Of a DNA stretch of 64,000 bases, positions 41,851-63,827 are shown in pieces. Made by a program: the position numbers and the translations under genes. The stretch covers positions 1 through 64,000 of IMG/VR virus record IMGVR_UViG_3300032214_000566; one strand, written 5' to 3'. The DNA is from a virus. Under the pieces are notes generated by a model that saw only the letters and a program-made list of their open reading frames with translations, was not told the DNA's origin and did no database searches. Numbering within the stretch: the stretch's first letter is position 1; every line of letters begins with the position of its first letter.

Positions 41851-44061
41851 TTAAAAATCCAATTTAACAGGATACTGCTGAATACCTTGTCGTTTTTCAG
41901 GTGACTGTATCTTAGATACAACCATAAGCTCTTTTTCATCGTTGTAAAGAGCAACTTCCGACACATAAGGAGCTGACCCATCCCAAGTTGGGTTAGTAGA
42001 ACTTAAAAATTGAGTTTGTCCTAAATTACACAGATAATTCATTACATAGATAGTTGCTTGTATGTCAGTTTGTATCGCACCGTAGAAATAATATTCACCC
42101 CCAAAGTTTAGTGTCACCCCACTATTTGCCGGTGTAGGTAATGTAATATAATTATTCAAATTATATATCGAAGCATTATCATACATATCTTTAGTGATTT
42201 GTATTGTAGTACCTGTCAAACCTGTTACAGTTAATTTACCATTTAATGTTGATGCCGATAATTGTGACATAACATCAATTTCTTTCCATAGTGTTGGATT
42301 AGGTCTTGTGGTACCACTTGATACTTTTTGAACTAATACCTTCATCTCATTCGCAGTATACCCTGTAGGTATCGTTGGGTTGCCTGACACTAAGAAAGGA
42401 AACTCACTACCAAATTTTAAAAATATATTATAGGTTGGTTGCGTAGGGTCTAAAAGACTCGGTGTTAATTTAGTATAATAATTACAGTGTAGTGAATTAG
42501 TAAACGCGCTGTTATTGAATCTATACGTCACAAAAACGGACTCAGTATTTGCACTTAACAAACCTTCGTCTTCACCCATAACTCCGTCACACGCATTCGG
42601 TATGATTGTACCAACTTTAGGTGCCGGTAAGGTCCATGAACGATTAGATTTATAATTCAATGCCGCAATTATTTCGTCATCATCAAATATCACCATTTTA
42701 TAATCAGGGAAAACTTTACCAACTCTACTAGGGTACCCATTACCGTTAACGTGAGTATCCCATAAATTATAATATCTTAATCCAGGATTATTAAATTTAA
42801 CATCCTTTTTAGACTGTATATAATAAGGTTGGAATAAATCAACCTGTGTAAATCCACTTGGGTCTGTGTAAAAATCTTCACCAATAGTTGCATTAGTGTT
42901 CTTGTGCCACATCAACCAAGGAATACTTAATTTAAAGTTTCTTGCCTGTCCGGTCGCACCAGGATCAGCAGAATCATATTCTTGTTGTGCAAATTTTTCT
43001 CCATAGAAATTATCAATTGCTTGGTTAGTATAATGAATAATTGCTATAGATTTTTGGTCACTCGGACTTAATACTATATTTTGGTCCATTGAATTAGTAA
43101 AATAAACCGATCCCGTATCAACTTGACCATCATTGGATTTATACCCAAAATATTCTTTTGAACCTGTATATCCTGTTGATTTATAATAATTATAATCTAA
43201 AACTTGGTTCGAGAAGACACCCGCCGGAGACTCAGTCCAAGGAATATTCATATTCCATACTTTAACATCCGATTGGGAGACATCACAATTTGTTTCATAA
43301 TTAAATACGTTTGTTGCCCAATACAATTGTGGTGTTACCGAATCATACAATGCGGTCATACCCGAAGGGTAGAATAAAATATTGGAATAACCTGAATACC
43401 CCATAGACTGGAAGTTAGGTAATTGTCTATCGACTTGTATCGTCACTGTAGATGCGGTTGATGTGTTACCCGTGATACCAACAACGACATAAGTGAACAT
43501 AGGAGCATTACCACTTAAAGGAGTGATTGAATTTGTTGTGAACAGAGTCAATATCATTCCAGGTGTTACGGTTCCAGAAACAGAAGGGTTAATTGAATTA
43601 CTACTAATCACAAATGTAGTACCTGAGCTTAATCCACTATTCGCGACATTAAAATTAGGATTAATAGTGTATGATGACGAGGTATACGCACTAAAATTAA
43701 ATGTGTTTGCGGTTGACCCCGTAAAAAATCCTCTTGGTGCTGCAGAATTAAAGATATTATCAACAAAAGACGCATCATAAGGAATACCATAAGTAGTTCC
43801 TGAAGTTGAGTCTAAGAATAATGGGTATTTAACATGGTGTCTATTTTTTTCAGGTACCGGTGTTAAATTCTGAGCATTGTATTGTGGTGACAACACGTTT
43901 AATTGTGATGGAACCATATTGTTAACACAACCATAACAAACTTCACTATCACCTATCTGAAAATATGCGATATTGAATTTTCCTTGCGACATTTTTTTTC
44001 TTGCCGCATCCGTAAGTATTGTACTTATTAATGGTCCTGTTGTTTTATTTATGTATGACAT
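41851..44061 (-). CDS. Virion structural protein (baseplate or tail-associated)
   Basis: ILTDAARKK...YFQIGDSEV N-terminus and YVSEVALYND...VSK C-terminus, typical of tail-collar/baseplate proteins. Confidence 0.7.
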   Translation of the reverse strand: MSYINKTTGPLISTILTDAARKKMSQGKFNIAYFQIGDSEVCYGCVNNMVPSQLNVLSPQYNAQNLTPVPEKNRHHVKYPLFLDSTSGTTYGIPYDASFVDNIFNSAAPRGFFTGSTANTFNFSAYTSSSYTINPNFNVANSGLSSGTTFVISSNSINPSVSGTVTPGMILTLFTTNSITPLSGNAPMFTYVVVGITGNTSTASTVTIQVDRQLPNFQSMGYSGYSNILFYPSGMTALYDSVTPQLYWATNVFNYETNCDVSQSDVKVWNMNIPWTESPAGVFSNQVLDYNYYKSTGYTGSKEYFGYKSNDGQVDTGSVYFTNSMDQNIVLSPSDQKSIAIIHYTNQAIDNFYGEKFAQQEYDSADPGATGQARNFKLSIPWLMWHKNTNATIGEDFYTDPSGFTQVDLFQPYYIQSKKDVKFNNPGLRYYNLWDTHVNGNGYPSRVGKVFPDYKMVIFDDDEIIAALNYKSNRSWTLPAPKVGTIIPNACDGVMGEDEGLLSANTESVFVTYRFNNSAFTNSLHCNYYTKLTPSLLDPTQPTYNIFLKFGSEFPFLVSGNPTIPTGYTANEMKVLVQKVSSGTTRPNPTLWKEIDVMSQLSASTLNGKLTVTGLTGTTIQITKDMYDNASIYNLNNYITLPTPANSGVTLNFGGEYYFYGAIQTDIQATIYVMNYLCNLGQTQFLSSTNPTWDGSAPYVSEVALYNDEKELMVVSKIQSPEKRQGIQQYPVKLDF

Positions 44062-44089
44062 AATATATAAATATCATTTTATTGGTTTA

Positions 44090-45715
44090 TTATCCCGTTG
44101 ATTGAGTTGATGATGTCGGAGCTAAAATACCCGTCTTAGTTATACTAAATGTTATTGGCGTTACATTCACATTTAACGTCTCACAAATAGTCTGATTACT
44201 CAATGTTACATTAGTAATCGAAATAGTATTATTTATCGTACCTGTTGGTGCACAACTTGTGGATCCATTAGCCACGACTACAGTCGAAACAACAGTCCCT
44301 TTAACCGTACCGACACCAATAATTTTAGCACTATATGTTCTTGTTATCGCACTTGTAACATAATTAGAATAATTCAATGTTGCACTACATGCGGTTGTTG
44401 TTGACGCAGATGTTGTGGATAAAGTAGTACCACTAATATATGTACCCCCTCCTGTTGTTCCCGTAGAAGACGTATTAGTTGTTGTTGCTTGGACACTTCC
44501 ATTACCTCTCACAACGTTAGTTATATGTGTGATATCAAACGTCAAAGTTTTTCCAACAGGTAAAGATGGGGTTACCGATACCTCCCACACAAAAGATTTA
44601 CTTAATGTGGTATTACTATTGGTAATTACGGTACCATTAGCCGGAACTAAATTTAAATTAATACTATAATTACTAACATTTGTGAGTGATTGTAAATTCA
44701 CGACATTCGCAGACACATTCCCAATAATATCTTGTACATATACGGTATATAACCCTGAAGGTAAATTTGTAAAAGTGTTCGATATTTGATAAGATGCTGA
44801 GTTATTATTTAATGCGTATTCATATGGAGGTGTACCTCCAATTACGTTAGTAACCTGTATTGTACCATTTTGTGCAACATCACAACTAGGAACATTACTA
44901 GTTATTATTGCAGATATCGAATCTTGACAATCACCTAAACTTAAAGTTACAGGTTGGTTTGAACCGGCGACTGTCCACGCACCAATAGGTGGGCTAACAG
45001 CCGATTGTAGAACAGGAGTACCTTGGAAATTTGGGCCCCAGTTAGTTATATTCCACATAGTTGTTCCCGTATTGAAATATATTGTTCTACTCGGACTTGA
45101 CCCCGTCCAAGACGGATACCCATTAAAAGTCGAAGCAGAATAAAACTGATATTGCCATTGGGTGTTGTTAAAGAATGTGGTTAAACACATACCTGAAACA
45201 TTTAATAATTCAGGAACCGTAGGTATACACTCTATACATGTGTCGAATGGTCCTGTTACCGTAGTTGCAGTATAATTGTAATATGTTTGTGCCGTATATA
45301 ATAACACACCGTTACTTATCCAACATCCACTTTGTAAATTTAAAGAGTATATTGTATTGGCAGAAAATTGATTCTCCATATCCGCCAAATAATACAAGAA
45401 CGAACCTGGCGACGTACAACTTTCAAACTCCTCGAGATAGAAAGTAACGTTTCCAACTGTACACGTTGTTGTTCCGGTAAAATCACCATAATAATCAACC
45501 ACTGTTGCGGTATAATCACCAACTTGTAGATTAGTTAAATTTTGACTATTAGATCCATTACTCCAAGATATTGAATATGGTGGAGTTCCTCCTGTTATTA
45601 CTAAACTTATTCCACCGTCGTTTGTAAATGGTGTGTAAGCATCAATTACCGAACACTCAACTCCCATCGGGAATAGAGTTATAATTTCACATGTATTACC
45701 ACTGTATGCTGGCAT
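44090..45715 (-). CDS. SprB-repeat, Cys/Thr-rich tail or fibre protein
   Basis: GGTPPYSISWSNG...NLQVGDYTATVVD and GGTPPYEY...FTNLPSGLYTVYVQD. Confidence 0.75.
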   Translation of the reverse strand: MPAYSGNTCEIITLFPMGVECSVIDAYTPFTNDGGISLVITGGTPPYSISWSNGSNSQNLTNLQVGDYTATVVDYYGDFTGTTTCTVGNVTFYLEEFESCTSPGSFLYYLADMENQFSANTIYSLNLQSGCWISNGVLLYTAQTYYNYTATTVTGPFDTCIECIPTVPELLNVSGMCLTTFFNNTQWQYQFYSASTFNGYPSWTGSSPSRTIYFNTGTTMWNITNWGPNFQGTPVLQSAVSPPIGAWTVAGSNQPVTLSLGDCQDSISAIITSNVPSCDVAQNGTIQVTNVIGGTPPYEYALNNNSASYQISNTFTNLPSGLYTVYVQDIIGNVSANVVNLQSLTNVSNYSINLNLVPANGTVITNSNTTLSKSFVWEVSVTPSLPVGKTLTFDITHITNVVRGNGSVQATTTNTSSTGTTGGGTYISGTTLSTTSASTTTACSATLNYSNYVTSAITRTYSAKIIGVGTVKGTVVSTVVVANGSTSCAPTGTINNTISITNVTLSNQTICETLNVNVTPITFSITKTGILAPTSSTQSTG

Positions 45716-45727
45716 TCTTATTAATTT

Positions 45728-45946: not shown

Positions 45947-45950
45947 ATTT

Positions 45951-47567
45951 TTAACAGTTGCCGTTTACTCTACATAAAAGTGTTATTTCACCACTCGTAT
46001 CAACTTTATATACATAACCACCGTACTTGATATAATCCTCAACTATTGGTTTTGTAAGTGATGAATCTTGGTAAATAAAGACACCATCAACTAAAGATGT
46101 ACTACTAACTGAAGTGTAGAATGTTAAATCAACCCCACCGTCTGTTAATTGACAAACAGGACAGGAAACACTAAAACCACCTTGACCATTCCAAACATTA
46201 TATGATGGTGTAGGTGTTGGGGTCGGTGTTAAGCAATTTAAACAAGTACCATATGTTGTTGCGGTAGTTGCGGTAAATATTGGTTGGTTAGACCATCTAT
46301 ATTCAGGAGATGGGTAATAATTCACAAAACTACCGATATATGTATAACATCCAATAGTTTGGTCTTTTATCACATCACCCACAACAATATTACGTGGTGG
46401 GTATTCATCTTGAATTATCATCAAATTAGAATCACAAGCAGTAAATACAAATTGAGTATTAGGAGAATAAAATACTGTTGGTGTTGGTGTTGGACTTGTG
46501 GTTGGTGTTGGTGTTGGACTTGAAGTAGGTGAAGGTGTTGGTGTTGGTGTAATACAAACATTACATCCTGAATACACCTGAACAACTGAATTTAAATATC
46601 CACTAGCACTTCCTGTACTCTCACTTATATATGTCACACATTTTGGTAAATTATCTATCACCGCTTGGAATGTTGTTCCTGTATTTAAAGGAGTGGTTCC
46701 ACTTATTATTGGTCCTCCAACATAGTAAAAACTTCCATCATTACAATCCTGTAAAACTTTAATTGTTGGGCAATTAAAATTACCACTTTCAATCACAAAC
46801 GTCACGGTCTCACCAGTAATTGAGTACCCATAAGCAGGTGTCGGTGTAGGGGTAGGACTTGGGGTTGGTGTTGGTGTAGTATAGGCACTAAAGGTAATCG
46901 TTGCGGTAAATACGCAAGGGGTTGGAGTTGGTGATGGGGTAGGAGTCGGAGTTGGTGTTGAAGTTGGTGTAGGGGTAGGGGTTGGAGTATCAAAATTACA
47001 ATCCAAAATAACATCGAAATCCAAACTACTACATGGATCAGGTGTCGGGGATGGTGTTATACAACTACCCGTATATTGTATGGTTTCACTTAAATCGGGA
47101 CAATATGAACTAGTTGGTTCTGAACCGAAAAAATAACAAGTTCCTGTCAATGAACTACTTAAACACCATTTAATATTATTATAGAATATGTATCCACTAG
47201 TTGTTCCTGTCCAATATGGGTATCCATTATGTTCTCCAGCAACCACATAGTTACCACTATACCCACTGTAAGCATCATTATTAATATCAACACAAATTTG
47301 ATTACTACATGACGATCCGGTAAATGACAAACAAGTACTCGTATTACAATCTGCCTGTAACGTATAAACCCCACTAAGTGAAATAAATTGTATTGGTGTA
47401 AATCCTGTGGTATAAGCGGAAACTATTTCATAACATCCGTCAGGAACAACTGAGTCACCTGAGAATGAGAATACAGACCCAACCGATGAGGTGTATGCCC
47501 AACTAGCACCTGTATAGGTATATTGGTAAGCGGGGTAATTACAACCTTCAAATAATATATTTGCCAT
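45951..47567 (-). CDS. Cys-rich virion protein with several Pro-Thr (mucin-like) linkers
   Basis: TPTPTP tracts separate small Cys-rich domains. Confidence 0.75.
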   Translation of the reverse strand: MANILFEGCNYPAYQYTYTGASWAYTSSVGSVFSFSGDSVVPDGCYEIVSAYTTGFTPIQFISLSGVYTLQADCNTSTCLSFTGSSCSNQICVDINNDAYSGYSGNYVVAGEHNGYPYWTGTTSGYIFYNNIKWCLSSSLTGTCYFFGSEPTSSYCPDLSETIQYTGSCITPSPTPDPCSSLDFDVILDCNFDTPTPTPTPTSTPTPTPTPSPTPTPCVFTATITFSAYTTPTPTPSPTPTPTPAYGYSITGETVTFVIESGNFNCPTIKVLQDCNDGSFYYVGGPIISGTTPLNTGTTFQAVIDNLPKCVTYISESTGSASGYLNSVVQVYSGCNVCITPTPTPSPTSSPTPTPTTSPTPTPTVFYSPNTQFVFTACDSNLMIIQDEYPPRNIVVGDVIKDQTIGCYTYIGSFVNYYPSPEYRWSNQPIFTATTATTYGTCLNCLTPTPTPTPSYNVWNGQGGFSVSCPVCQLTDGGVDLTFYTSVSSTSLVDGVFIYQDSSLTKPIVEDYIKYGGYVYKVDTSGEITLLCRVNGNC

Positions 47568-47622: not shown

Positions 47623-48420
47623 TCATAAGAATAACTCAATATATTCTCTCCACTCACACTTTATTAAATTATATAACTCAGGTTGTTTAGTATATGTAAA
47701 ATCAAACATCTTTTCATCGCTACCAACATAACCATTTGAAATGGCGTCAAGTGTTACATTTTTGAATGTTTCACATACTTCTATGACCCTATGTTTTGGT
47801 ACGAATAATGACCCTCCTTGTATGAATCTTGTTTGTGACAATGCGTGGAATTCCGCATCCTCGAATCTTACGTAATCGTGATGAGAGAAAAACGTAACTT
47901 TATCATTGTCTAACGAATTAATCTTATCTAAATTTGGCCATTTTACATTTTTTTTAGGGTGGTCATCTCTAATCACACCTGCATCCGCCCAAACATATAA
48001 ATCAGCATCAAATAACCCCTTTTTAAATGAATCCAAAATATAAAATAACTTACTAAACATCACAACATTATATAATGGTTTAATCATTTCTGGTACGTCA
48101 AAATGTATTTTCTTTTTAAATTCATCACTAGACATTAATTTATCCAATGGTTCAAAAAATGTTTTATACCCCTCTATTTCTTCTAATGGTTGTACAATCA
48201 TAATCGTCTTTTCTAAATTGGGGTCAACCTCTTTTCTGAATTCTAAAATTTGTTCTTTAAATTTTTCTTCTGTATAGATTATTAGATTAGTATCTAAAAA
48301 TAGAATACTCCTCATCCACCAAATATATGTGTGGTATGACATCGTGTAATTGTCCCATTTATCTCTACCTATATCAAATAGTGCTGTTACTATTGCTGTT
48401 TTTTTTATATCCATTCCCAA
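47623..48420 (-). CDS. WlaTC/HtrL-family glycosyltransferase
   Basis: IVTALFDIGR...YNVVMFSK...WADAG...IQGGSLF...GSDE. Confidence 0.8.
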   Translation of the reverse strand: MGMDIKKTAIVTALFDIGRDKWDNYTMSYHTYIWWMRSILFLDTNLIIYTEEKFKEQILEFRKEVDPNLEKTIMIVQPLEEIEGYKTFFEPLDKLMSSDEFKKKIHFDVPEMIKPLYNVVMFSKLFYILDSFKKGLFDADLYVWADAGVIRDDHPKKNVKWPNLDKINSLDNDKVTFFSHHDYVRFEDAEFHALSQTRFIQGGSLFVPKHRVIEVCETFKNVTLDAISNGYVGSDEKMFDFTYTKQPELYNLIKCEWREYIELFL

Positions 48421-49151
48421 TTTATTTTCATATGTTTATGTTGTATATCCACTTGATTAACGTCGAATAAATCTGAAGTATTATCAGATTTAATTAACGT
48501 ATTAAGTTTAAATCCGTACTTATTTAACATTGTCGGCACAAAACCCTCAGAGTAACCATGTAACCCTTGTTCGTGTATCTCTAATAGTTTTTTCATCGCT
48601 TTATTTGAAAATCTATTAGTTGGGAAAAATGAACCGAATTTTTCATTTACATCTTCAGGTAATAAATCCCCATCACCAGGAAATCTTTCAAACCACATAT
48701 GTTGTGATGTTGTTCTATTATCCAATTTTGGTATATTTTCTTGGGAAATAACATTTTCATTTTTAAAAATAAAGTACCCTAAGAAATCCGAGTCGTCCTT
48801 ATCGGTACCTTCAAAAAATAAATTCCAATCTTTCATTTTCACATCATCATCAAAAAACCAATAGTAATCGTAATTTGGGTGGTCAATATAAAAATTTAAC
48901 ATCCTAAGGTGAGCATAAAACCATATAATATTTCTATTCCCGTAAGAGTTCCAATAATGTTTTTTACTAACATCACCATAAAATTTTAATCTATCTCTTA
49001 ATTCTTTTTCGGTATATGTAAAACCAAGATTAAATGTCGAATCTTTACTGATATCCGAAATCCAAGTTATTTCTTTTGGGAAGTTTCTCCAATGGTTTGC
49101 ATACGCAGGGTACACATCAGGTGTTGTACAAACACAATAAACACTATTCAT
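48405..49151 (-). CDS. Putative GT-A glycosyltransferase (DUF3405-like)
   Basis: YDYYWFFDDDV DxD motif; RFSNKA; SEGFVPT; C-terminal His. Confidence 0.65.
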   Translation of the reverse strand: MNSVYCVCTTPDVYPAYANHWRNFPKEITWISDISKDSTFNLGFTYTEKELRDRLKFYGDVSKKHYWNSYGNRNIIWFYAHLRMLNFYIDHPNYDYYWFFDDDVKMKDWNLFFEGTDKDDSDFLGYFIFKNENVISQENIPKLDNRTTSQHMWFERFPGDGDLLPEDVNEKFGSFFPTNRFSNKAMKKLLEIHEQGLHGYSEGFVPTMLNKYGFKLNTLIKSDNTSDLFDVNQVDIQHKHMKINWEWI

Positions 49152-49962
49152 ATTCTTTTGTTATAATTTCATTCCATTCAGGGATTCTATTGAATTGGTG
49201 AACAATATCATAAACTTCTCCCTTATGATTGTAAAGTTTATTATCTTTAAGATAGGGTATACCCCCGTATCTATTTGTTAATGTATTTTTAAATCCCCAT
49301 GATTCAAAAAATTGTGTCGGTCCCCCAACTGCACAATGTAATGTCCAACCCTCATCAAAAGAGAAAATTTTCAATCTATCAATCTCATTTTTTGCAATCA
49401 TTATTATCAAAGCAGCTTGGTCTTTTATGTTGTGGGAGTTATTACTATTCTCACACATATCATTTAATTTAGTATACACCTTTATTAAAGATTCTTTTCT
49501 ACCACCAATAACTCCTGAACATATAATGTCATGAGTTCTACAAATTTCTAAATCTTCAGGAAAAACTTTAGCAATTACATCACCATTCCATGGTTCTTCA
49601 TTTATTCTTAATCCTTCAGACCCGACAAATACATCATACTCATCTTCCATTTTAATAAACGGGTCCGATTGGAACGCAACATCAAATACGTCAGTTACCA
49701 TAAATAAATCGTAATCTGATTCTGTAATAAAATCTAATGTGTGTTTAAGTCTTTTGTTATTAATATACCACGTATCTTCAACCGTTACCGGAATTGGTAT
49801 TATACCCAATTCGTGACATATTTGTATTTCATCGTCATTAGTATTGGCACAAAGTAAAACAACGTCCCCATTAGTGTGTTTTTTAAAACTATGTGACCAC
49901 ACTTTAATTTTATTTATATTCTTACTTATATTGTTAGATAACCCAACTAAAACTTTTTTCAT
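49144..49962 (-). CDS. Putative GT-A glycosyltransferase
   Basis: TDVFDVAFQSDPF, CSGVIGG, DQAAL, IVHQFNR. Confidence 0.75.
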   Translation of the reverse strand: MKKVLVGLSNNISKNINKIKVWSHSFKKHTNGDVVLLCANTNDDEIQICHELGIIPIPVTVEDTWYINNKRLKHTLDFITESDYDLFMVTDVFDVAFQSDPFIKMEDEYDVFVGSEGLRINEEPWNGDVIAKVFPEDLEICRTHDIICSGVIGGRKESLIKVYTKLNDMCENSNNSHNIKDQAALIIMIAKNEIDRLKIFSFDEGWTLHCAVGGPTQFFESWGFKNTLTNRYGGIPYLKDNKLYNHKGEVYDIVHQFNRIPEWNEIITKEYE

Positions 49963-49965
49963 ATT

Positions 49966-53078: not shown

Positions 53079-55832
53079 TTATAATTCTTGTACATTTAAA
53101 GTTGGTGCTGTTGATTCCCCAAATTTAATACTACCACCACTTATCTCATTAGCCTTTAAATAGTACGTATATGTTCCAGCGGCAGGCGCATCTATATAAC
53201 TCATACCAAATGGTGTGTTTTCACTTGCGGCACTACCTTCAGTATGCACAATAGCCCCAAGTTGTGTAGAGTCTCTCCAAAATTGTAATTTACACCAATA
53301 ACCAGCACCTGTATTTTCAGCATCTCCATAAGCACTTATTCTAACAGGATTACCATATGTCGTTATAGTAGTACTAAGTATTGTTTGTGGGCCCCCACTT
53401 GCTGATAATGTGACGGAAGCCCCTCCACCAACTTGTGAATAGTTAATACTACTTTTTACTCTACCAGTTACTGTTAAATTACCCGCATCTGTTAAACTAA
53501 GTAAAGTACTATTATATGCGTTATTAATAATTTCAAAACTACCAAAAATATCCGTTCTAAATGTTTTAGATGGTGTTGTTGCACCAGCTGCCGTGTTAGT
53601 TACTCTAATAAAATCAGTATAACCCGTACCTCCAATAGTTCCACTACCACTAAACGTTAATAATGCGGTTGTTGAATTTCCACTTGTTGTTATGGTACCT
53701 TTAGTTCCTGTTATCTTATTACTATTACCATTAAACGTTGTTGCCGATATGTCATTACCAATTATAGTTGACCCGGTTATTGCACCATTTGTGGTTATTT
53801 GAGAACCAACAATCTCACCTTTGGCCGTTATAAACGACGTTATACCACCTATTGCGTTTATCCCTTCAAATAAATTTGTTGAGATGTCAGGGTTACCTGT
53901 GCCATTTTTAATTGAGAATGCACCTATACCTGATGTCGTTATAATTTCAGGGTCTGCTGAATTGTCGTATGCCTGTTGTAATGTTGTTGTTGATAAACCA
54001 CCTGAACCTCCAAGTAACTCACCAAATTTAGATACTTGCGTAAATACAGCATCATCAACATCAGTTAAATCCGTTGCTCCGTCTTTAACCGTCAATAAAC
54101 CAATTAATATTCCGTTTGCTAAGTTATTGGGATAAACCACAAAAATCTCACTCTGGATTGCGGCTATCGCCTTTGCTAAAGTTGGGTAATACGATTGTCC
54201 ATATTGTATTCTAACAAGTCCTGTTGGGAATTGATAAATTCTTTGTGTCGTGTAGTTTCCTGTACCAGGCACCGCAGTAACAACTCCACCAACATCATAA
54301 TTTGTTGTGTCGATTGTTGTTGTATTAGTAAATGTTCCACCCGTTTGTGTTCTATATTGGAAAGTTGTTGGTGAGGTTCCTGATAAATTAACATTATTTG
54401 GTGATAATTGATTTGTTGACCAATTAATTCCGTTACCCCATAATGTGCCCGCGGATTTATCAATATTTAAATTAACTCCGTTTGCAGATACAATAACACC
54501 ATCATTAATTAAATTTATTGGGTCCCACAAATCACGAAGTGCCGACATTGGTGACACGTCATAATCAACCGTATTATTAACATTTTGTATTGTTGTTCTA
54601 TTAGGGTGAACTACTTTACCTAAATAAATGTTTTCTCTTCTTTGTTGTGATGTTGGAAATGTTCCTTGTTGGAATACTGTTCCTCCACTATTAACTAATA
54701 TATAAGTTGAGTCAGATAATGATATCCCTGTGATTGAATATGCCGTATTTCCCGTGTATATAATATTTCTAACACTAGGTAATGTTGCAAATTCATATGT
54801 ATTTGATACAATCCATCCTCTCATTGGTGAAATTGAAATTGTTGTACCTGACGTGTAAGTTAAACCTGTAAATTCGTATGTCCCTGTTGAAATAACATTA
54901 CCTTCAAGGATATTTCTTTCAATGTCGGTTAACGAAAGATTAATATCTTCATTGTTAATATTAACATATATGGCACCTATTGTTGTCCCCGATTTTAAAG
55001 TGTACCCAATTTCATTTGTTCTCGCACTGAAAGCCAAGGAAGACGTTGTTGTTACATAACCACCTGGTATTGTGTCCGATAAATATATAATACCACCGGG
55101 AGTATTTGAAACCGTAACTCCGCTTAATACCCCATTATTAATTGTGTATCCCGTTTGACCATTTAATATGTCATTTTCAATAAGTCCAATAACTTGATTG
55201 TTACCAGATTTAGACGCAATCGCCAATTGTACTGATGGTGTAATATTAGACGAACTAACTAATTTAACAGCACTACCTTTAAGTAAGGTGACACCCGTTT
55301 CATTAATAACCGTTGTTCTTAAAATACCAAGGTCATTTGACGGAGATATTCCACTTGTCCCCGCAGAACCTGATGTTCCGCTAGTTCCTGAAGATCCCGA
55401 CGTACCTGATGTACCACTTGTTCCTGAAGATCCTGACGTACCGTTAGCTCCTGATGTTCCACTAGTTCCTGACGATCCTGACGTACCGTTAGCTCCTGAT
55501 GTTCCACTAGTTCCTGACGAACCTGATGATCCTCTAGTCCCTGAAGTACCGCTAGTTCCTGATGAACCTGAAGCTCCCGTAACACCTGATGAACCTGATG
55601 AACCTGATGAACCTCTAGTACCTGAAGTTCCACTACTACCTGATATTCCACTTGTTCCTGAAGACCCATTAGTACCTGTACCCCCACTTATCGATGCGGT
55701 TACAGATGAAAAATAAATAGCACTTGTTACACCAGTTACTTCATTCGTATAATCAACTATAACCATTATACTATTAGGTGACCCCGAACCAATAAATGGT
55801 AGTTGTGATATTCTTGAATCTTGTTGTGACAT
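53079..55832 (-). CDS. Tail fibre-like protein with Gly-X-Y (GTS/GSS) collagen-like segment
   Basis: RISQLP N-terminus, (GTS/GSS)n, TTLQQAYD, C-terminal DAPAAGTYTY domain. Confidence 0.75.
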   Translation of the reverse strand: MSQQDSRISQLPFIGSGSPNSIMVIVDYTNEVTGVTSAIYFSSVTASISGGTGTNGSSGTSGISGSSGTSGTRGSSGSSGSSGVTGASGSSGTSGTSGTRGSSGSSGTSGTSGANGTSGSSGTSGTSGANGTSGSSGTSGTSGTSGSSGTSGTSGSAGTSGISPSNDLGILRTTVINETGVTLLKGSAVKLVSSSNITPSVQLAIASKSGNNQVIGLIENDILNGQTGYTINNGVLSGVTVSNTPGGIIYLSDTIPGGYVTTTSSLAFSARTNEIGYTLKSGTTIGAIYVNINNEDINLSLTDIERNILEGNVISTGTYEFTGLTYTSGTTISISPMRGWIVSNTYEFATLPSVRNIIYTGNTAYSITGISLSDSTYILVNSGGTVFQQGTFPTSQQRRENIYLGKVVHPNRTTIQNVNNTVDYDVSPMSALRDLWDPINLINDGVIVSANGVNLNIDKSAGTLWGNGINWSTNQLSPNNVNLSGTSPTTFQYRTQTGGTFTNTTTIDTTNYDVGGVVTAVPGTGNYTTQRIYQFPTGLVRIQYGQSYYPTLAKAIAAIQSEIFVVYPNNLANGILIGLLTVKDGATDLTDVDDAVFTQVSKFGELLGGSGGLSTTTLQQAYDNSADPEIITTSGIGAFSIKNGTGNPDISTNLFEGINAIGGITSFITAKGEIVGSQITTNGAITGSTIIGNDISATTFNGNSNKITGTKGTITTSGNSTTALLTFSGSGTIGGTGYTDFIRVTNTAAGATTPSKTFRTDIFGSFEIINNAYNSTLLSLTDAGNLTVTGRVKSSINYSQVGGGASVTLSASGGPQTILSTTITTYGNPVRISAYGDAENTGAGYWCKLQFWRDSTQLGAIVHTEGSAASENTPFGMSYIDAPAAGTYTYYLKANEISGGSIKFGESTAPTLNVQEL
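55350..55690 (-). repeat. Gly-Thr-Ser / Gly-Ser-Ser triplet repeat with a near-exact 45-nt duplication
   Basis: Gly every third residue for about 110 aa. Confidence 0.9.
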
Positions 55833-55840: not shown

Positions 55841-56119
55841 TTACAAAATAATTTTATAACCGTTTTCTTGTAATAAAAAGAAACCGTTCTCTTGTAATAA
55901 ATAGTATATTGGGCAACTTACTAATTGGAAAAATTCACAATTAGTTGAATCAATTACTTTGACCATTAGAACTTCAGCGGTTTGGAATAAAGGACTTAGT
56001 GTAAATGTACCTCCAGAAGTTCCAATATTTTGACAGTTGTTACCATTCTCGTCACATATAAAAAACGTATACGGCGGGGTACCTCCTGTTTCACCTGTGA
56101 TTATTAAGTAACTACCCAT
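55841..56119 (-). CDS. Small virion protein (paralog family) with repeated LLQENG motif
   Basis: GGTPPYTFFICDENGNNC; YLLQENGFFLLQENGY. Confidence 0.65.
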   Translation of the reverse strand: MGSYLIITGETGGTPPYTFFICDENGNNCQNIGTSGGTFTLSPLFQTAEVLMVKVIDSTNCEFFQLVSCPIYYLLQENGFFLLQENGYKIIL

Positions 56120-56120
56120 T

Positions 56121-58790
56121 TTAACAAGTGAACTTTGTGATTATTATACCATCCCCGTCTACTTGTACAACATTTCTTGTAGTTATTGGACAACTATTTG
56201 ATAAATAGATTCTTGCCCATCCGCCATTTTTAGGGTCTAAGTTAGTACCAACATATCTAGTCGTTAATGTCGGATTAGTGTAAACAACATTACCTAAATT
56301 AATTGTGGCTCCTGTAGTATATAATTGAACATTACATGGTGAGTCAATACAAATATCTTCATCTGCAGTGTTATAATATTCTCCATTAGTATACCAAGCA
56401 ACACCAGCATAAGTTGGAGTTGGTGTAGGTGTTGGTGTAGGAGTTGAACTAATAGTTGGTGTAGGAGTTGGGGTTGGTGTCATTGTAGGAGTTGGGGTTG
56501 GTGTTTTAATTTGGTCGCAACTTATATCATAAGTTATAGATAATTCCAATTTAAAATAGTTATTACCCATTTGGTCACAATCACAAACTATGATTAATAC
56601 ATTATTTAATACATTAACCGTATATGATGTGATTTGTGGAATACTTCCTAATATGGTTTCTATCGCTCTTTGCCAAGCTCCGTCATCACTGTATATAAAG
56701 TTTTGAGTTGTTGCGGAACCATTTATCGTAAAGACCGCCTCTAAAACCGCAGTATTTAAAATACAATTAGTATATCCCGTAGTTAAATCAATAAATCCTT
56801 CATTTAACATTTTAGAAATCGATCTCTTAGTTCCTGAAGTATTAACAAAAGTTTTATTAAATATATTGTATCTTGACCTACCCGATACTATTACTTGATT
56901 ACATGTTATTGTAAAAGGCCAATAATTAGTACAACCGTCACTATCAGTAATAGTTACATCATATGTCCCACCTGAAAGACCTGTTACAGTACTTCCCGTA
57001 CTCCCTGATGGTGTATTATCAGACCAATTATATGTGAATGGTGGTGTGCCTTCAAAAATAGTTACAGTTGCTACACCATCATTAGCATTTTTACATTCTG
57101 TTTTAGTAAGTGTGGTTGATAAACTGCCACTTAAGGGTACGTTCAAATTTAAAGACACCGTACAATTTTCAGAATCGGTAACTTGTAATATATAATCACC
57201 AGGAGTTAAATAATTAAATGTGTAGGAACTAAACGGCACATCAATTAAATTTTGTCCATTACTTAAAACATAATCCAAAGGAGCGGTATACCCCGTACCA
57301 ACTTCAACCGATATTACTCCGTTTGGTGACCCGCAAGAAGATGGTGTTGTTGTGGCTGTTAAATTAAATTTATCAACAGCACTTATTTCAATCGTTTCTG
57401 TGTAAAGACAACTACTTGATTGTCCTGAAATTTTTAATAAATAAGTATCAGAGACTAAATTACCGAACGTTACATTTTGATTTTGAGTGTATTCCTCATA
57501 AACAACATTCGTATTTTGACCCGATAATGAGTATAAATAAAATCCATATAACCCAGTAATTGTTGTTTTTAAAGATGCGTTGTTTTTACTACAAATAGAG
57601 TTTGTTATTACATTTTTGACATCCCTAAAACCATTTACAGTATTAAGTGTTGTTAAAATATTTAAAGTACAGAAATTAGCATCTTTTACCAAAATAGAAT
57701 AGTCCCCACTTGGTAATCCACTTATCGTGAAAGTGTCTGATAGTGTAACTCCAAAGTTACCAGATGACGCAGAATAATAGAAAGGTACTGTACCACCCGT
57801 TAAAGTTATCTCTATTTGGCCGTTACTATCAAAACAACTTGGTGTTGTGTTATTTATTAACCCAATACCTAATTGTTCGGCGGACCCGACATAACTGGAT
57901 TTTGTTACACCACAACCTTTAACATCAGTCACAGTTACTGAGTATTCACCAATAGTTAACCCTGTTATTGTTTGACCTGTATTTCCATTAGACCATAAAT
58001 ACGTATAAGGACCGACACCTGTAATACCAGTCACCGCCAATTTACCCGTATCCAATAAACATCTCGATGTATCAACTTTCCATAGACCAAAATCAAGTTC
58101 AGTACTCGCCGAAATAACCACATTTTCAGTTCTTGCTGTTGTAATACTATCATCCGATATTAAAACGTAATAAATACCCTCATCTAACTCTGTAAAGGTA
58201 TATGGGAATGTTTCAGCTGTCTCAATTAATAATAATGATTCATCTTTATATAATAATAAATCATATGGTGGGAAAAGTGACGTACCACTAACAGTTAGGT
58301 ATCCATTTGTTAACCCACAATTGGTCCCGTTAGCGTCTATAATATTGCCTTCATTACAAGTCCCGACAGCAATATTGATGTATGTTTCGGCGTTTTGATA
58401 ACCTAAAGTATCATTTAACCTAAACACATATGTCGTGGCACTAAGACCGGTATATGTAATTTCAGTAGTACCTGTTTGTGTACTTAATCCGTGACCAATA
58501 GGGTATATAGGGTCAACCGTGTACGGTGGATAACCACCTGTTGGGTTTATGACTATAGTTCCCGTCGGTGAGTCACACGTACCCGTTACGGTAAAATAAT
58601 ACCCAATAACAGGTAAATCAATACAGTTAGACGTACAAGTACTTCCAGAGTCAATAACTACGTTTACAACACTTCCGGAATATGATTGATTAAGACATAC
58701 GGTTTCTCCGGAAGATACACCAACTCTAGCAACCCCACAACAATCTATATAAGAGTAAACACCATTAGTATATCCAGTAATACAAGCCAT
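56121..58790 (-). CDS. Multi-SprB-repeat virion protein with a C-terminal PT linker
   Basis: Repeated units such as GPYTYLWSNG..ITGLTIGEYSVTVTDVKGC; TPTPTP near the C-terminus. Confidence 0.8.
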   Translation of the reverse strand: MACITGYTNGVYSYIDCCGVARVGVSSGETVCLNQSYSGSVVNVVIDSGSTCTSNCIDLPVIGYYFTVTGTCDSPTGTIVINPTGGYPPYTVDPIYPIGHGLSTQTGTTEITYTGLSATTYVFRLNDTLGYQNAETYINIAVGTCNEGNIIDANGTNCGLTNGYLTVSGTSLFPPYDLLLYKDESLLLIETAETFPYTFTELDEGIYYVLISDDSITTARTENVVISASTELDFGLWKVDTSRCLLDTGKLAVTGITGVGPYTYLWSNGNTGQTITGLTIGEYSVTVTDVKGCGVTKSSYVGSAEQLGIGLINNTTPSCFDSNGQIEITLTGGTVPFYYSASSGNFGVTLSDTFTISGLPSGDYSILVKDANFCTLNILTTLNTVNGFRDVKNVITNSICSKNNASLKTTITGLYGFYLYSLSGQNTNVVYEEYTQNQNVTFGNLVSDTYLLKISGQSSSCLYTETIEISAVDKFNLTATTTPSSCGSPNGVISVEVGTGYTAPLDYVLSNGQNLIDVPFSSYTFNYLTPGDYILQVTDSENCTVSLNLNVPLSGSLSTTLTKTECKNANDGVATVTIFEGTPPFTYNWSDNTPSGSTGSTVTGLSGGTYDVTITDSDGCTNYWPFTITCNQVIVSGRSRYNIFNKTFVNTSGTKRSISKMLNEGFIDLTTGYTNCILNTAVLEAVFTINGSATTQNFIYSDDGAWQRAIETILGSIPQITSYTVNVLNNVLIIVCDCDQMGNNYFKLELSITYDISCDQIKTPTPTPTMTPTPTPTPTISSTPTPTPTPTPTYAGVAWYTNGEYYNTADEDICIDSPCNVQLYTTGATINLGNVVYTNPTLTTRYVGTNLDPKNGGWARIYLSNSCPITTRNVVQVDGDGIIITKFTC

Positions 58791-58810: not shown

Positions 58811-61801
58811 CTAAGAACACTCTACACTAACGTCGATAGAAATGTCTAAGTTTAATGTGTTATTCATAAAATCATCATAACAAGTAGTGTTGTAAATAGT
58901 TAGAACACCACCCACAAATGAGTAATCTAATCCTTGTTGGTATAAAGTCGATAATGACGAGTCAATGGCATTTATTACCATATCATAAGTTAAAGATGAC
59001 CCATCTAACTGACTCAAGGCGTTTGTACCGTCACCAATAAAGAATTGTTGATTAATTAATGTTTGTTCAACACCTGTTATATTATTAATCATAGATAGCT
59101 CAACATACCAAGTCGATACTACCGTATTGTTATTACATTGTGCAGGGTCTATACCTTGTCCAACGATTGTATTATATATTTCAGTACCTAAAATAGTTAT
59201 AGGGTCAAAGAAAGGTAAAGTACTTGTTATTGATTGGTCATTACAATCTAAAGCACCTGCGGAACCTTCAAATGAAGACGTAATTTCAGGATTAGGTCCG
59301 ATATCAGTACACCCTCTTTGTCTTTTCCATGCCACTTTTTGTCTATGGAATATAGAATTATCCATTTTTTGACCTGTGTTCCATATTGTGGTTGCAGGTA
59401 CGAATTGTTCTGTTAATCTAACCCAATAATCACCAAGACCCAACGTATAATCTATCATTTTTTGATAGGTAAAGTCATTAAATGGTAAGGTCGTGTTTTG
59501 AGTAGTTTCTAAATACTTCCAAAAAATATATTGTAAGGTTGGATATCCACCTGTTTTACCGTCAAAAATATATTGTCTATTTCTAACATTAATTAAATTA
59601 TTATAGAATGACTGTGCAAACTCCAAGAATGTTTTTTGATTTGGTTTAGGATTAATGTATGTCCAATCAACATTACCAGGTGATGGGTATGGTGATGTAA
59701 GTCCTGTGTTTGGTATAGGATAACCATATTTAGAGGACATCTCCCATATATCATATGTAATACCTTGACCCATGTTAAGGTATAATTCCATATTTTTAAC
59801 GTTAATCGCTAAACTATCATTTTCAATTAAATAATTTGTTTCAGATAAATTTTGAGTACTTTTTCTTTTACCCACATCTTCAACTTTCCAAGATTTTACA
59901 TTGTCTATTGTTCTGGTTAACCCATAACCTAAATCTAAAAAAGGAAACTTAATGTACCTATCCAAATACTCTTGACCGTATGTGAATGGTAATAGTTGTG
60001 AACTAAATACAGGTATTTGTGAATTAAGTTCAGATGTTGAAAATTGTATAACTTCAGGTGATCTATGCTCGGGAGTCGCCTCAAACCAACCCGCACCTTT
60101 TTGGAAAAAATAATCCTCCGTGAACACGGGACTTTCAGGATACCCATCAAGTAATGAAATAGCATAATCAGCAAGTGTAGTTCCAACTGACACTAATCTA
60201 GAATTAGCAGTAAATCCTGTATATGTTACACCTTGTATTGAGAATGTGTTTGCAGTATCATAAGATGTTATCTTATCTATTTTAGTTCCTCCAGAAATTT
60301 GAGCAAATTGATTAGTAAATTCGTCTACTGAAATTTTTTGGTCAGCAATATAGATATACTCATTGAACTCTATTAGTTGCTCGGGAGCACCTATTAACCT
60401 TAGAATATATTCTATAGATTGTCTTGTACCTTTTGATTTATAAAGGAATGCAGAATTTAAAATTAGATTTCTAAAATACTGATAATTAATCTCAGCAGGT
60501 GTTTGTTCTTTAGATTGACCAGGATATATCACATCATTAGTTGTGGTATATATTGTGTTTAATAAATCGTCATTCGTGATTGGTGAAATTGCAGTTTTCC
60601 AACCTAAAGTTTCCGCCAAATTTGAGAGTAACTCCGATGGTATATCATTACCCACAATATAATTAACCGAATTCATGTTCGCTAATGAGTCTATAAATTT
60701 CTTGGTCTCGTCAAAACTTCTACCATAAATCTGTAAAACCTTTTCAATTTTTTGGTCAGGTGTGTCGAACTCTTTTAAACTTCCTGAAGTTAAAAATCTA
60801 CTTAATAAATTTGTTTTATATTCATCAAGTTTTTCGGCAATTGTTTGTATATTTGTTAAATAATTATCAAAGTTAGCCGTAGAAATGTCTAAATTCCAAA
60901 AACCATCAGTTTGCCAAGTTAATAATTTGGTTATCATAATGTAGTTACCGTCACTGTCGTAGTCAGGGTATTGGAACTTAGATGTGTATTTAGGATAAAC
61001 GTTTCTATTTAAAATGTAATCTTCAACCTCATCAAATGAGTCTTGGAATATCTGTTCAGTAACTAAATTATTAGGTTTTAATAAAATAGATTGTACTGTA
61101 TTTGATGACGTAAACGGTTTCCCTTCAACGATTATATTAATCGTACCAGCAGTTAATGATGTTGTAGGTTCAAAATCCGTTATTTTATATTCCGTTGTTA
61201 AGTCATTAGTATATAACGAATAACTTCTAAAATATGTCGTTAAATTTCTGTATTTATTAACTTTATACGGTCTTACCTGAATGTTAAGTGTCGCGTTTGT
61301 AGTATAATCAATATCAAAAGGATTTTTAAAAAATTGTACATCAACATCAAAAGAAGTTTCATTTTCAACCGGATCGTAAACAATATTAAATGCGGTATAT
61401 CCCGTACTCAAACTATAATTCTGTTGGTCTATTTGTATTGCCGCAGGAAAATTATTAATTACTTTAGTTATGGATGCCGATAATCTTTTTTGTAATGAAC
61501 CATAAAGAGAAAAACTTGTAATTTGTGCTAAATCAAAATTAGGGTAAACTTTAAAGTTTTTTTCTATTATTTTTTTAGCTTCAGCAACATCAGTTATATT
61601 TAAAGTATCTAACGTATAGGGATCAGAAAACACACCAGTGTCAAATGTTCTATCTATTTTTTCGTATATAGCACTTGTAAATTGAAAATTACCTTGTGTC
61701 AGACCTCCTCCATTAACGACTTGGAACCCTACCAAATCATCGGAAAACGTACCTGACCCTACAGGTGCCGGTGATGGACATATGTATTTAGTAACTGCCA
61801 T
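58811..61801 (-). CDS. Baseplate wedge / tail protein I-like structural protein
   Basis: LAETLGW...RNLILNSAFLYKSKGTRQSIE motif; FVPATT. Confidence 0.7.
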   Translation of the reverse strand: MAVTKYICPSPAPVGSGTFSDDLVGFQVVNGGGLTQGNFQFTSAIYEKIDRTFDTGVFSDPYTLDTLNITDVAEAKKIIEKNFKVYPNFDLAQITSFSLYGSLQKRLSASITKVINNFPAAIQIDQQNYSLSTGYTAFNIVYDPVENETSFDVDVQFFKNPFDIDYTTNATLNIQVRPYKVNKYRNLTTYFRSYSLYTNDLTTEYKITDFEPTTSLTAGTINIIVEGKPFTSSNTVQSILLKPNNLVTEQIFQDSFDEVEDYILNRNVYPKYTSKFQYPDYDSDGNYIMITKLLTWQTDGFWNLDISTANFDNYLTNIQTIAEKLDEYKTNLLSRFLTSGSLKEFDTPDQKIEKVLQIYGRSFDETKKFIDSLANMNSVNYIVGNDIPSELLSNLAETLGWKTAISPITNDDLLNTIYTTTNDVIYPGQSKEQTPAEINYQYFRNLILNSAFLYKSKGTRQSIEYILRLIGAPEQLIEFNEYIYIADQKISVDEFTNQFAQISGGTKIDKITSYDTANTFSIQGVTYTGFTANSRLVSVGTTLADYAISLLDGYPESPVFTEDYFFQKGAGWFEATPEHRSPEVIQFSTSELNSQIPVFSSQLLPFTYGQEYLDRYIKFPFLDLGYGLTRTIDNVKSWKVEDVGKRKSTQNLSETNYLIENDSLAINVKNMELYLNMGQGITYDIWEMSSKYGYPIPNTGLTSPYPSPGNVDWTYINPKPNQKTFLEFAQSFYNNLINVRNRQYIFDGKTGGYPTLQYIFWKYLETTQNTTLPFNDFTYQKMIDYTLGLGDYWVRLTEQFVPATTIWNTGQKMDNSIFHRQKVAWKRQRGCTDIGPNPEITSSFEGSAGALDCNDQSITSTLPFFDPITILGTEIYNTIVGQGIDPAQCNNNTVVSTWYVELSMINNITGVEQTLINQQFFIGDGTNALSQLDGSSLTYDMVINAIDSSLSTLYQQGLDYSFVGGVLTIYNTTCYDDFMNNTLNLDISIDVSVECS

Positions 61802-62709
61802 TAACTAATTATGTTTGTAAAGTTTTTACTGAAGTCTATATTAGTACCTCTATCTTGTCTAACCTCATACAATAATTCATTAAAGTTATCTCTAACTTCA
61901 AATAAGTTATATTGTTTATAAATGTTACCCGCAGTATCATATAACGTATATACACCATCATCAATACTTTTAGTTTGGTTACCATAAAGGGCAATTGCTA
62001 ACGTATCAATATCATAATTAGATATTTGAATATCCAAAGTAACAGGATTAAAGAATGTGTTAGTAATAATAATATTTTGATTTGGTTGTCCAATAAATGG
62101 TGTCGCATTTGGTTTATTCGTAGGTGATGATGATGGTGATAAAGTACAAAATACTAAATTACTTGACCCTTCAGTATACCTATAACGAATAGTTTTTTGT
62201 GATGTATTTGTTTGGTTAGTTACAACAGGTTCGCAGAAAAATGCAGAAGTCACTATTCTAAAAAAATTAGGTATTTTTGTTCCGTCTGAATTTAAATACT
62301 CAACTCTAAACCCAACAAGACCTTGGTTAACGAATTTATTCCTATATTGTTGTGGTACATTATTAACGTCTATCACTATACCTTTAACATTCGGTAAAGC
62401 AGATAAAACCCCACAATCGGTAATTTTAGTTCTAATCTCAGCAGGTCTAACATACAACGTATATATACCAACAGCATTAAACTCAGTTGCCGGTAATTTG
62501 AGGTTGTACAAACCACCTAATATTTCAACATTTTTTTTACCACCAGTAGAATCATTATGATAATATGGTGTAAGTAATGTTGCCGCATTTAATTTTTTAA
62601 GTGTAAAATTAGTGGTTACGTCTCGGGAAGGAGTATAATGTAATATAATCTCCACATCCTGTGGTGAAACGTCCGCTGGTCTTACTGTTCCGTATGCTCC
62701 TAAAGCCAT
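61801..62709 (-). CDS. Putative virion structural protein
   Basis: Structural-module context; TATTTATA at 62722. Confidence 0.65.
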   Translation of the reverse strand: MALGAYGTVRPADVSPQDVEIILHYTPSRDVTTNFTLKKLNAATLLTPYYHNDSTGGKKNVEILGGLYNLKLPATEFNAVGIYTLYVRPAEIRTKITDCGVLSALPNVKGIVIDVNNVPQQYRNKFVNQGLVGFRVEYLNSDGTKIPNFFRIVTSAFFCEPVVTNQTNTSQKTIRYRYTEGSSNLVFCTLSPSSSPTNKPNATPFIGQPNQNIIITNTFFNPVTLDIQISNYDIDTLAIALYGNQTKSIDDGVYTLYDTAGNIYKQYNLFEVRDNFNELLYEVRQDRGTNIDFSKNFTNIIS

Positions 62710-62744
62710 TTGTTTTTTATTTATAAATAGTTTATGACACTTTT

Positions 62745-63827
62745 TTAAGCAGTGTTAATTTTATAATATCCGTAACCATATTTAACAAGGTCACCTATAT
62801 TATCCACTTCATTAAGTCTTTGTAAAGGCTCAAAAGCCGAATACTGACCTCTTTCAACAACAATATCCGATTGTACTTCAGGATCCATTACAAAATCCAA
62901 CAAATATTCATTTTTAGTCAATGCTGAAACCACAATATCATTATCTGTAATTCCTGAAGACCCAACAACATAATATGTTTTCCCGTCATTGGTGTCAAAG
63001 TACTCAATGTTATTAATAGTATACGCAGTATATTCATTTGTAATTTGACTAACATAACCTATAGAACCATTTGATAGTGACATGATATAACCGACTGTGA
63101 ATGGTTGTGGTCCCCATCTTCTTAATAATTCTAATTGTGAATTAGTATATCCAGAAACAGGGAATGGGATAGTTGTATATGTACTTGATATCTGTGATTG
63201 TACATTATTTTCAGAGTCACCTGTAAAGATAAAATCTAAACTTAATTGTGTCCCTGACCAACTACCTCCTTGTGGTGTGAAAGTTATCCCACCTAATGGG
63301 TTGGTTATTGTTATACCTGTAAATGGTACTGAAACCGGTTTTTGGACCGTAGTTGTACCCCAAATATTTGTTTGTGATAAAGTTATTGTATAATTTTCAG
63401 GGTTAGACGCATAGATATGACTTTGGATTGTATTACCTAAAGTTAAACTAGGTCCTGTAGATCCGTCACCCCAATTAATTACGTATTCAGATTGTTGTAA
63501 ATAATTTTGGAAATTGTAACTGGCAGTATTATAGACATATACTTTATATTGGTTAATCGGGTCTCCTGATATTACGAAGTTAGTTACAACATCTATTTGG
63601 TCAATATACCCATCAAATGTAGAATAATAACCAATATCATTAATGTTTTGTGTAAACATAATAGGTATCGTTAATCCCGTTAATAACGAACCCCCATTTG
63701 TACCACCGCTAAGGACGTAACTTAATCCTGAATAAACATCAAACGTATTTGTTTGGTATGTCTCTAAGAACAAGTCGTCATTTAAAACTTCCGGTGAAAT
63801 TACTATATTTATTTTTTCAGGTGTCAT
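62745..63827 (-). CDS. Putative structural protein with PKD-like domain
   Basis: VINWGDGS...SHIY...YTITLS. Confidence 0.65.
   Translation of the reverse strand: MTPEKINIVISPEVLNDDLFLETYQTNTFDVYSGLSYVLSGGTNGGSLLTGLTIPIMFTQNINDIGYYSTFDGYIDQIDVVTNFVISGDPINQYKVYVYNTASYNFQNYLQQSEYVINWGDGSTGPSLTLGNTIQSHIYASNPENYTITLSQTNIWGTTTVQKPVSVPFTGITITNPLGGITFTPQGGSWSGTQLSLDFIFTGDSENNVQSQISSTYTTIPFPVSGYTNSQLELLRRWGPQPFTVGYIMSLSNGSIGYVSQITNEYTAYTINNIEYFDTNDGKTYYVVGSSGITDNDIVVSALTKNEYLLDFVMDPEVQSDIVVERGQYSAFEPLQRLNEVDNIGDLVKYGYGYYKINTA

Follow-up and report, generated by a model that had tools for sequence, protein, structure and literature searches.

A lineage-restricted [ST][GA]x[ST] motif at predicted hairpin turns in the tail and fibre proteins of a freshwater jumbo phage

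To our knowledge, few cases of phage virion glycosylation are known, and no sequence rule predicts them. Among the described systems closest to the one presented here, Aah and TibC heptosylate AIDA-I and TibA, where a structural motif is what the enzyme recognises and S-G-G-S abounds in the glycopeptides (PMC3835316). According to the account of Freeman et al. 2023 given in PMC12619734, mycobacteriophage virion glycans are found at the C-termini of capsid and tail-tube subunits. The same article describes the moraphages, which are aquatic, measure 200-307 kb, are predicted to infect Bacteroidota and have four core families of glycosyltransferases (GTs) (PMC12619734), and enzymes of family GT60 start mucin-type glycosylation on Thr (PMC3769586). 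The stretch analysed here, called the window, comprises 64,000 nucleotides of a viral record (IMGVR_UViG_3300032214_000566, positions 1 to 64,000), and the element in question is a four-residue protein motif, [ST][GA]x[ST], which recurs in most of the tail and fibre proteins encoded from position 41,851 onwards, around a cassette of putative glycosyltransferase genes.

Expected counts were obtained from 1000 whole-protein shuffles per protein, the open reading frames (ORFs) being the longest open frames, called mechanically; genes are referred to by their first position. With a collagen-like run masked, twelve proteins contain 148 motifs against 44 expected (z 16), compared to 26 against 33 in the remaining proteome, so the excess is not accounted for by Ser/Thr/Gly composition. 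A previous reading of the sequence alone had noticed the motif in otherwise unrelated structural proteins, and the pentapeptides that it quoted are all present in their respective genes. Under shuffling, the excess is seen in 41851, 44090, 45951, 53079, 55841, 56121, 58811 and 62745, the motif is scarce in 61801-62709 (0 against 0.8), as had been noted, and the cassette genes have none or one. The carriers are unrelated at BLAST level, except for 44090 and 56121, which are similar through SprB repeats, and the motif is dispersed rather than tandem, with no strict periodicity in the window proteins. The enrichment also runs on past the window, into three further proteins at 63827-71848 of the same contig. 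The observation is thus confirmed, and it is stronger and more specific than the sequence-only reading could see.

With the first Ser/Thr of the motif numbered as position 0, the enrichment increases to 5.6-fold (81 against 14, z 18) when position -1 is hydrophobic or aromatic, while permutations of the motif residue classes reach only 0.9-1.45x. Thr is preferred at the last position (TGxT 5.0x, SAxT 6.2x, TGxS 1.4x) and Pro is avoided at +2. The highest count belongs to 53079, with 49 motifs against 14.8 expected when its collagen-like run is included; approximately 27 of the 49 hits fall in this (G-S/T-S/T)n run at residues 45-165, and 22 against 8.6 are found outside it. Simple causes were tried and rejected. 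Composition, whole-protein or local, does not explain the excess, which persists when residues are shuffled locally, over 20 residues. It is the protein sequence, rather than the DNA, that is under selection, since all synonymous codons are used approximately as in the background and the motif occurs 175 times in the coding frame against 0-12 times in the other five frames. One long hidden repeat is not compatible with the weak sequence context outside -1 to +3, nor with the lack of periodicity, and a generic property of fibres was discarded, as T4 gp34 (0.4x), gp37 (1.6x) and gp12 (0.8x) and the T4 baseplate are flat. The tail proteins of Flavobacterium phage 11b showed no enrichment either.

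The window covers the first 64 kb of one viral contig of 96,880 bp, approximately 33% complete according to CheckV, from which all completeness figures are taken. Since its near-complete relatives measure 281-322 kb, the contig can be regarded, from sequence, as a fragment of a jumbo phage. Likewise, 41851-71848 is assigned to a myovirus module for the distal baseplate and the fibres because baseplate wedge genes, one J-like (71922-73763) and one gp25/W-like (73766-74227), adjoin the motif-rich genes directly upstream. The features of the window are as follows, with motif counts given as observed against expected:

41851-44061, minus strand: 736-aa fibre protein, motif-rich (20 against 3.3); its orthologues have PT/poly-T linkers
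44090-45715, minus strand: 541-aa protein with SprB repeats (PF13573, 1.6e-11), motif-rich (15 against 5.8)
45951-47567, minus strand: 538-aa protein, motif-rich (13 against 4.2), with three Pro/Thr-rich linkers (residues 189-253, 337-374); flanks the GT cassette
47623-48420, minus strand: HtrL_YibB-family protein, cassette gene 1, motif-free (PF09612, 3.9e-27; TIGR02192 below cut-off)
48405-49151, minus strand: cassette gene 2, 248 aa, no family match, motif-free
49144-49962, minus strand: cassette gene 3, 272 aa, no family match, motif-free
49966-50538, minus strand: DUF3431 protein, cassette gene 4, motif-free (PF11913, 4e-15)
50535-51788, minus strand: GT60-type GlcNAc-transferase-family protein, cassette gene 5 (PF11397, 1.6e-68, 232 bits against a cut-off of 21)
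51834-53072, minus strand: 412-aa protein with a 113-residue Pro/Thr mucin-like linker (residues 71-183), weak excess (6 against 3.7); flanks the cassette
53079-55832, minus strand: 917-aa tail fibre with a Pro-free collagen-like run and a widespread fibre domain (PF01391, 5.7e-15; PHROG tail-fibre families)
53973-54932, minus strand: modelled domain, residues 301-620 of the 53079 fibre, nine motif sites (AlphaFold2, mean pLDDT 87)
55344-55676: residues 45-165 of the 53079 fibre, a collagen-like run built of G-[ST]-[ST] triplets (PF01391, 5.7e-15)
55841-56119, minus strand: 92-aa protein (3 against 0.2)
56121-58790, minus strand: 889-aa protein with six SprB matches (three above the Pfam cut-off; 4.3e-20) and a 42-residue Pro/Thr linker (residues 758-799), 26 against 6.7
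58811-61801, minus strand: 996-aa tail protein, weak excess (8 against 3.0)
61801-62709, minus strand: 302-aa conserved tail-module protein (0 against 0.8; orthologues 0-1)
62745-63827, minus strand: 360-aa protein with a PKD-like core, motif-rich (10 against 1.6); orthologues retain 73% of its sites

In the collagen-like run of 53079, this [ST]-G-x-[ST] pattern is itself arrayed in tandem. Regarding 62745, its AlphaFold2 model (pLDDT 46) was too poor for use; the sole confidently folded part is the PKD-like core at residues ~84-170, which reads 'WGDGS ... H.Y ... YTITMT'. Directly downstream of the 41851 fibre, a 201-aa gene at 41239-41844 is kept with 57-69% identity in every motif-rich complete genome; its single match is a weak, sub-threshold one to a radical-SAM P-methyltransferase family, and its product is a possible fibre chaperone.

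The same restriction to a class of proteins is seen in the relative G007 (281 kb, 96% complete), whose whole proteome was scanned. Motif-rich in this genome are the tail sheath and the orthologous tail module, along with collagen-like fibres and several unknown proteins. Meanwhile, the major head protein (3 motifs against 2.4 expected), portal, polymerase, helicase, protease, baseplate J and two proteins of ~2,000 aa are flat. In the tail sheath (130754-133969; L180:10754-13969), 14 of the 15 motifs are located in an N-terminal extension of ~780 residues, the conserved sheath domains being at residues 786-1068. Additionally, a 769-aa protein (G007:256678-258987; L186:16678-18987, minus strand) has a 66-residue unit repeated three times, each unit consisting of six short segments with the motif at the start of each; this tandem-repeat protein has no match in Pfam, PHROG or PDB sequences, and from its sequence it looks like a fibre building block. 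As a separate observation, the 925-aa portal protein of the same genome (G007:64957-67734; L177:4957-7734) has HNH endonuclease matches at approximately residues 114-280, with the portal domain at 412-806, and may thus bear an inserted or fused homing endonuclease.

The structural context of the motif was addressed in the fibre domain of 53079 (residues 301-620), which is very common, with 3,598 homologous cluster representatives. A domain-trimmed alignment of 49 sequences was the input for the AlphaFold2 model, which is a monomer of a fibre that is probably trimeric. In this model, at sites 322, 360, 460 and 484 the hydrophobic residue at -1 closes a β-strand, [ST][GA] forms a two-residue turn and the Thr at +3 lies in the return strand. 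Short loops between strands hold sites 328, 382 and 497, a loop also holds 368, and 363 falls inside a strand. Eight of the nine sites are consequently placed in turns or loops, and the motif appears in the model at the tips of β-hairpins, as a sequon should. However, the sequence-only reading, which had proposed this structural check, holds only in part, as Phi-x-G-x-T (Phi, hydrophobic) is also in part a structural turn shared with unenriched phages. Throughout the alignment, Phi-x-G-x-[TS] is kept in all homologues, while position 0 varies, being Ser/Thr in one set of homologues and L, N, Q, K, A, G, P, M or I in others. Distant homologues, from Streptomyces phages, Stenotrophomonas phage DLP_6 and phage 11b, have 1-3 motifs in the domain, mostly elsewhere, compared to nine here. 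Pro and Gly tolerance at position 0 suggests the i+1 position of a type II-like turn. By this alignment, Phi-x-[GA]-x-T is a structural turn scaffold whose first hydroxyl the fold does not require, since L, M, I, P, A, G, K, Q or N occupies that position in other lineages. A Foldseek search with the 301-620 model returned weak phage fibre and baseplate matches only.

Comparisons between genomes were made with G007, G032 and G018 (96% complete each), G013 (90%) and G027 (100%), and the measure was the probability of Ser/Thr at position 0 given the scaffold Phi-x-[GA]-x-T. In the Ser/Thr-rich ORFs of G000, G007, G038, G032 and G018, position 0 is Ser/Thr in 59-80% of cases, against 20-27% in equally Ser/Thr-rich ORFs of G013 and G027, which is close to the background of about 22%, and 17-31% in other ORFs of the motif-rich genomes (odds ratios 6.5 and 7.6, p <= 2e-21). 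An N/D version of the turn is mildly enriched in the non-fibre proteins of the lineage. As for relatedness, G038, G032 and G018 share 82-132 of the 285 ORFs of G007, whereas G013 and G027 share 18-23. Since the motif-poor genomes are unrelated phages and the motif-rich ones are related, motif richness is, by these sequence comparisons, a lineage trait. The contrast is essentially that of one lineage with two unrelated outgroups. Within the lineage, the Ser/Thr residues of the motif are more conserved among orthologues (0.68-0.71) than other Ser/Thr residues (0.55), and the excess is carried by positionally shared sites, those at new positions being near chance (z -0.3 to 2.2). A turnover like that of a glycan shield was therefore not seen, as orthologues share their site positions. 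Among 147 homologous metagenome fibres, which are alike in Ser/Thr content, the full-length ratio of observed to expected motifs has a median of 2.7 and extremes of 0.56 and 4.9. The 58811-61801 protein, used as a query, led to 63 related loci, and a search of the viral contig collection did not recover two motif-poor homologues. One locus, L271 (IMGVR_UViG_3300040786_000030, 193 kb), has a fibre-domain match of 266 residues, yet no ORFs of at least 300 aa in 20.8 kb under table 11, and it is possibly from a phage with a reassigned stop codon.

Two layers emerge from these results. In the first, as in the model, a hydrophobic residue ends a β-strand, x-[G/A] makes the tight turn and Thr stands in the return strand. 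In the second, the exposed first residue of the turn is Ser/Thr in 59-80% of scaffolds in the fibre-like virion proteins of this lineage of freshwater jumbo myoviruses (~280-320 kb), whatever their fold, as the carriers include putative SprB Ig-like and PKD-like domains, the fibre domain, sheath decorations and collagen-like proteins. This can be read as a hydroxyl-tipped hairpin, selected at protein level throughout the lineage, with which these phages would build the exposed β-structure of their fibres. The hydroxyl would then serve as a polar cap, capable of hydrogen bonding, on solvent-facing hairpin tips, and we infer that the hairpin tip is also the unit of the tandem fibre repeats. Such a structural or surface-chemistry role, a hydroxyl-capped hairpin, is slightly preferred over a sequon read by an enzyme from outside the cassette, although its probability is put at somewhat below even. 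Several results weigh against it. A purely structural role does not readily account for a Ser/Thr preference that is limited to one lineage and spans unrelated folds of one virion, a pattern to be expected from a trans-acting factor. As the contrast between rich and poor genomes sets essentially one lineage against two unrelated phages, it counts as a single phylogenetic event. Moreover, the same domain folds in other phages without Ser/Thr at position 0, bacterial SprB proteins, T4 and phage 11b lack the enrichment, and the 'exposed' tips of a monomeric model could be trimer contacts.

The main alternative, considered possible and next in probability, is that the motif is a hairpin-context O-glycosylation sequon whose position-0 hydroxyl is read by phage glycosyltransferases other than those of the cassette, which would act in the cytoplasm and leave the tail periphery coated with glycans, by analogy with Aah/TibC. 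It agrees with an enrichment limited to one lineage and one protein class and independent of fold, and with the exposed turns of the model. The candidates for this activity are four GT-like genes that each of the four complete motif-rich genomes carries and neither motif-poor genome has, a number that recalls the four core GT families of the published moraphages (PMC12619734). In G007, they are located at 90589, 91403, 101636 and 104597 (a GT2, a GT2_5+GT4 fusion and two weaker matches), within a block at G007:89456-105814 (L178/L179) that has orthologous blocks in G038, G032 and G018. They are close to motif-rich ORFs and fall in the part of the genome that is missing from the contig. However, this association is confounded by common descent, and because a dUTPase/dCTP-deaminase-like gene sits among them, the block may be a DNA hypermodification module instead. 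GT2-type genes are not specific to motif-rich genomes, being present in G032, G018, G013 and G027, and motif-poor G013 has both GT2 and GT1 genes inside its fibre locus. The modification itself is putative, and the stability of site positions is unlike a glycan shield. The motif is not depleted in non-target proteins, with 1.12x in non-fibre proteins of the lineage against 1.08x in unrelated phages; such absence of avoidance is neutral to mildly negative for an enzyme that reads the linear motif alone, and avoidance is not strictly required of a sequon. A phylogenetic-profile screen for a writer gene returned 52 lineage-core genes and was uninformative, because the motif-poor genomes are unrelated phages. 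Separately, it was observed that in G032 (244026-261000 and 263153-282192), which lacks the GT60 cassette, a different, GT2-type cluster stands directly beside the most motif-rich fibre genes, where all four large ORFs are enriched (4.2x).

A third proposal is that hydroxyl-tipped hairpins are a putative ligand-contact surface, for instance Ser/Thr arrays that would bind host polysaccharide, selected by the host range of the lineage. The confinement of the motif to receptor-facing fibre-type proteins and sheath decorations, at tips that are exposed in the model, speaks for it. Nevertheless, a motif found in more than 12 proteins, including shaft-like repeats, is too pervasive for binding sites, and unrelated phages with the same fibre domain lack it, making this explanation very unlikely.

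Very unlikely too, and ranked just below the ligand surface, is the explanation of the sequence-only reading, in which the adjacent five-gene cassette (47623-51788) would use the motif as its acceptor site. In its favour, the cassette is embedded in the motif-rich module, one of its genes has a strong match to the GT60 polypeptide GlcNAc-transferase family (the others being HtrL_YibB, DUF3431 and two genes without family match), and motif-enriched fibre loci were found in all eight GT60-positive records examined. However, none of the five genes has a detectable homologue in G032 or G018, which still have 11 and 8 motif-rich ORFs, respectively; in G013 and G027 the cassette is absent and there are no motif-rich ORFs. 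For this comparison, relatives of 80-100 kb were uninformative, being ~30% complete. Relatives of the GT60 protein occur in more than 320 viral contigs, and in one relative the gene is ~50 kb from the tail genes. Moreover, in a comparison of 101 tail and fibre loci, each 15 kb or longer, the presence of GT60 in the locus makes no difference to motif strength (0.83 with it, 0.82 without). The correlation between motif density and GT presence that the sequence-only reading had proposed to examine is thus absent for GT60, and its selected sequon is retained only in part: protein-level selection, spread over unrelated folds, an excess beyond composition and a place in hairpin-tip turns stand, while the link to the adjacent glycosyltransferases is not supported and the motif is partly a structural turn.

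What GT60 does track is another feature. Pro/Thr-rich linkers are present in 23 of 24 loci with GT60 against 29 of 77 without it (odds ratio 38, p 2e-7, for loci that are not phylogenetically independent), and the largest linkers of the window belong to 45951 and 51834, the genes that flank the cassette. From this co-localisation, the flanking linkers and the known activity of GT60 enzymes on Thr, it follows that the adjacent cassette most likely serves the Pro/Thr-rich, mucin-like linkers.

Finally, the proposal that the motif arises from composition, from a repeat at DNA level or from known repeat families has next to no probability and is refuted as a full explanation: although ~27 hits of 53079 come from the collagen-like run and up to ~3 hits fall in each SprB repeat, these families hold a minority of sites, neither masking the run nor shuffling locally removes the enrichment, SprB has only 8 matches in the whole contig, in two proteins (5 above the Pfam cut-off of PF13573), eight large Saprospiraceae SprB proteins give 0.5-1.7x with none significant, and codon usage and reading frame exclude the DNA level.

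The motif is therefore sharply defined and statistically robust, with a predicted structural address, the first residue of a hairpin turn, and a defined set of carriers. Natural negative controls exist in the same domain of other phages, and the lineage has members with and without the adjacent cassette, making two questions testable: glycosylation of phage fibres at hairpin tips, and the action of GT60-type enzymes on Pro/Thr linkers. If the sequon were real, a widespread group of freshwater jumbo phages would coat more than 12 tail and fibre proteins with hundreds of sugars at hairpin tips. This would parallel autotransporter heptosylation in phages, and it would be the first sequon from which glycosylation of phage virions could be predicted. 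If the sites were unmodified, the motif would still be a lineage signature that marks fibre-type proteins among unannotated jumbo-phage ORFs.

Comparing this locus with the known systems, the mycobacteriophages, as far as the account cited above describes them, resemble it in that phage-encoded glycosyltransferases decorate virion proteins, an activity that is putative here. What differs from that account is the head protein, which has few motifs here, and the location of the motif, internal and at predicted hairpin tips of fibre-type proteins. The polypeptide alpha-GlcNAc-transferases of family GT60 from Trypanosoma cruzi (PMC3769586) are matched by the PF11397 protein, by the Thr/Pro linkers beside the cassette and by the co-localisation of both. 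This likeness concerns the linkers and not [ST][GA]xT; the characterised enzymes are eukaryotic, and the activity and acceptor of the phage protein are predicted by homology.

The Aah/TibC system (bacterial autotransporter heptosyltransferases, BAHT) shares with the phage proteins the many dispersed Ser/Thr residues in β-rich repeats, and the glycopeptides listed for AIDA-I and TibA contain S-G-G-S/T. It differs in its substrate, a bacterial β-helix rather than phage fibres, and no gene of the heptosyltransferase family was found here; modification is demonstrated in that system, while the phage motif is known from its sequence. SprB (PF13573) and collagen (PF01391) repeats are both present, the former in 44090 and 56121 and the latter in 53079, and each contributes some motif hits. 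They differ in covering a minority of the sites, and bacterial SprB proteins are unenriched.

No isolated phage gave a close match to the window by megablast or tblastn. The SprB repeats, together with a Saprospiraceae metagenome-assembled genome that is the sole bacterial relative found, point to a Bacteroidota host. The published description of the moraphages fits this lineage, which may belong with them: its relatives measure 281-322 kb and have four conserved GT-like genes, and SprB points to hosts of the same phylum. As for tight β-hairpin turns with Gly as second residue, the likeness is direct: a strand end, a two-residue turn with Gly or Ala second, a return strand, and a first turn position where homologues of the fibre domain accept Pro, Gly, Lys or Ala. 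What sets the phage motif apart is that ordinary turn statistics do not yield 60-80% Ser/Thr at that first position.

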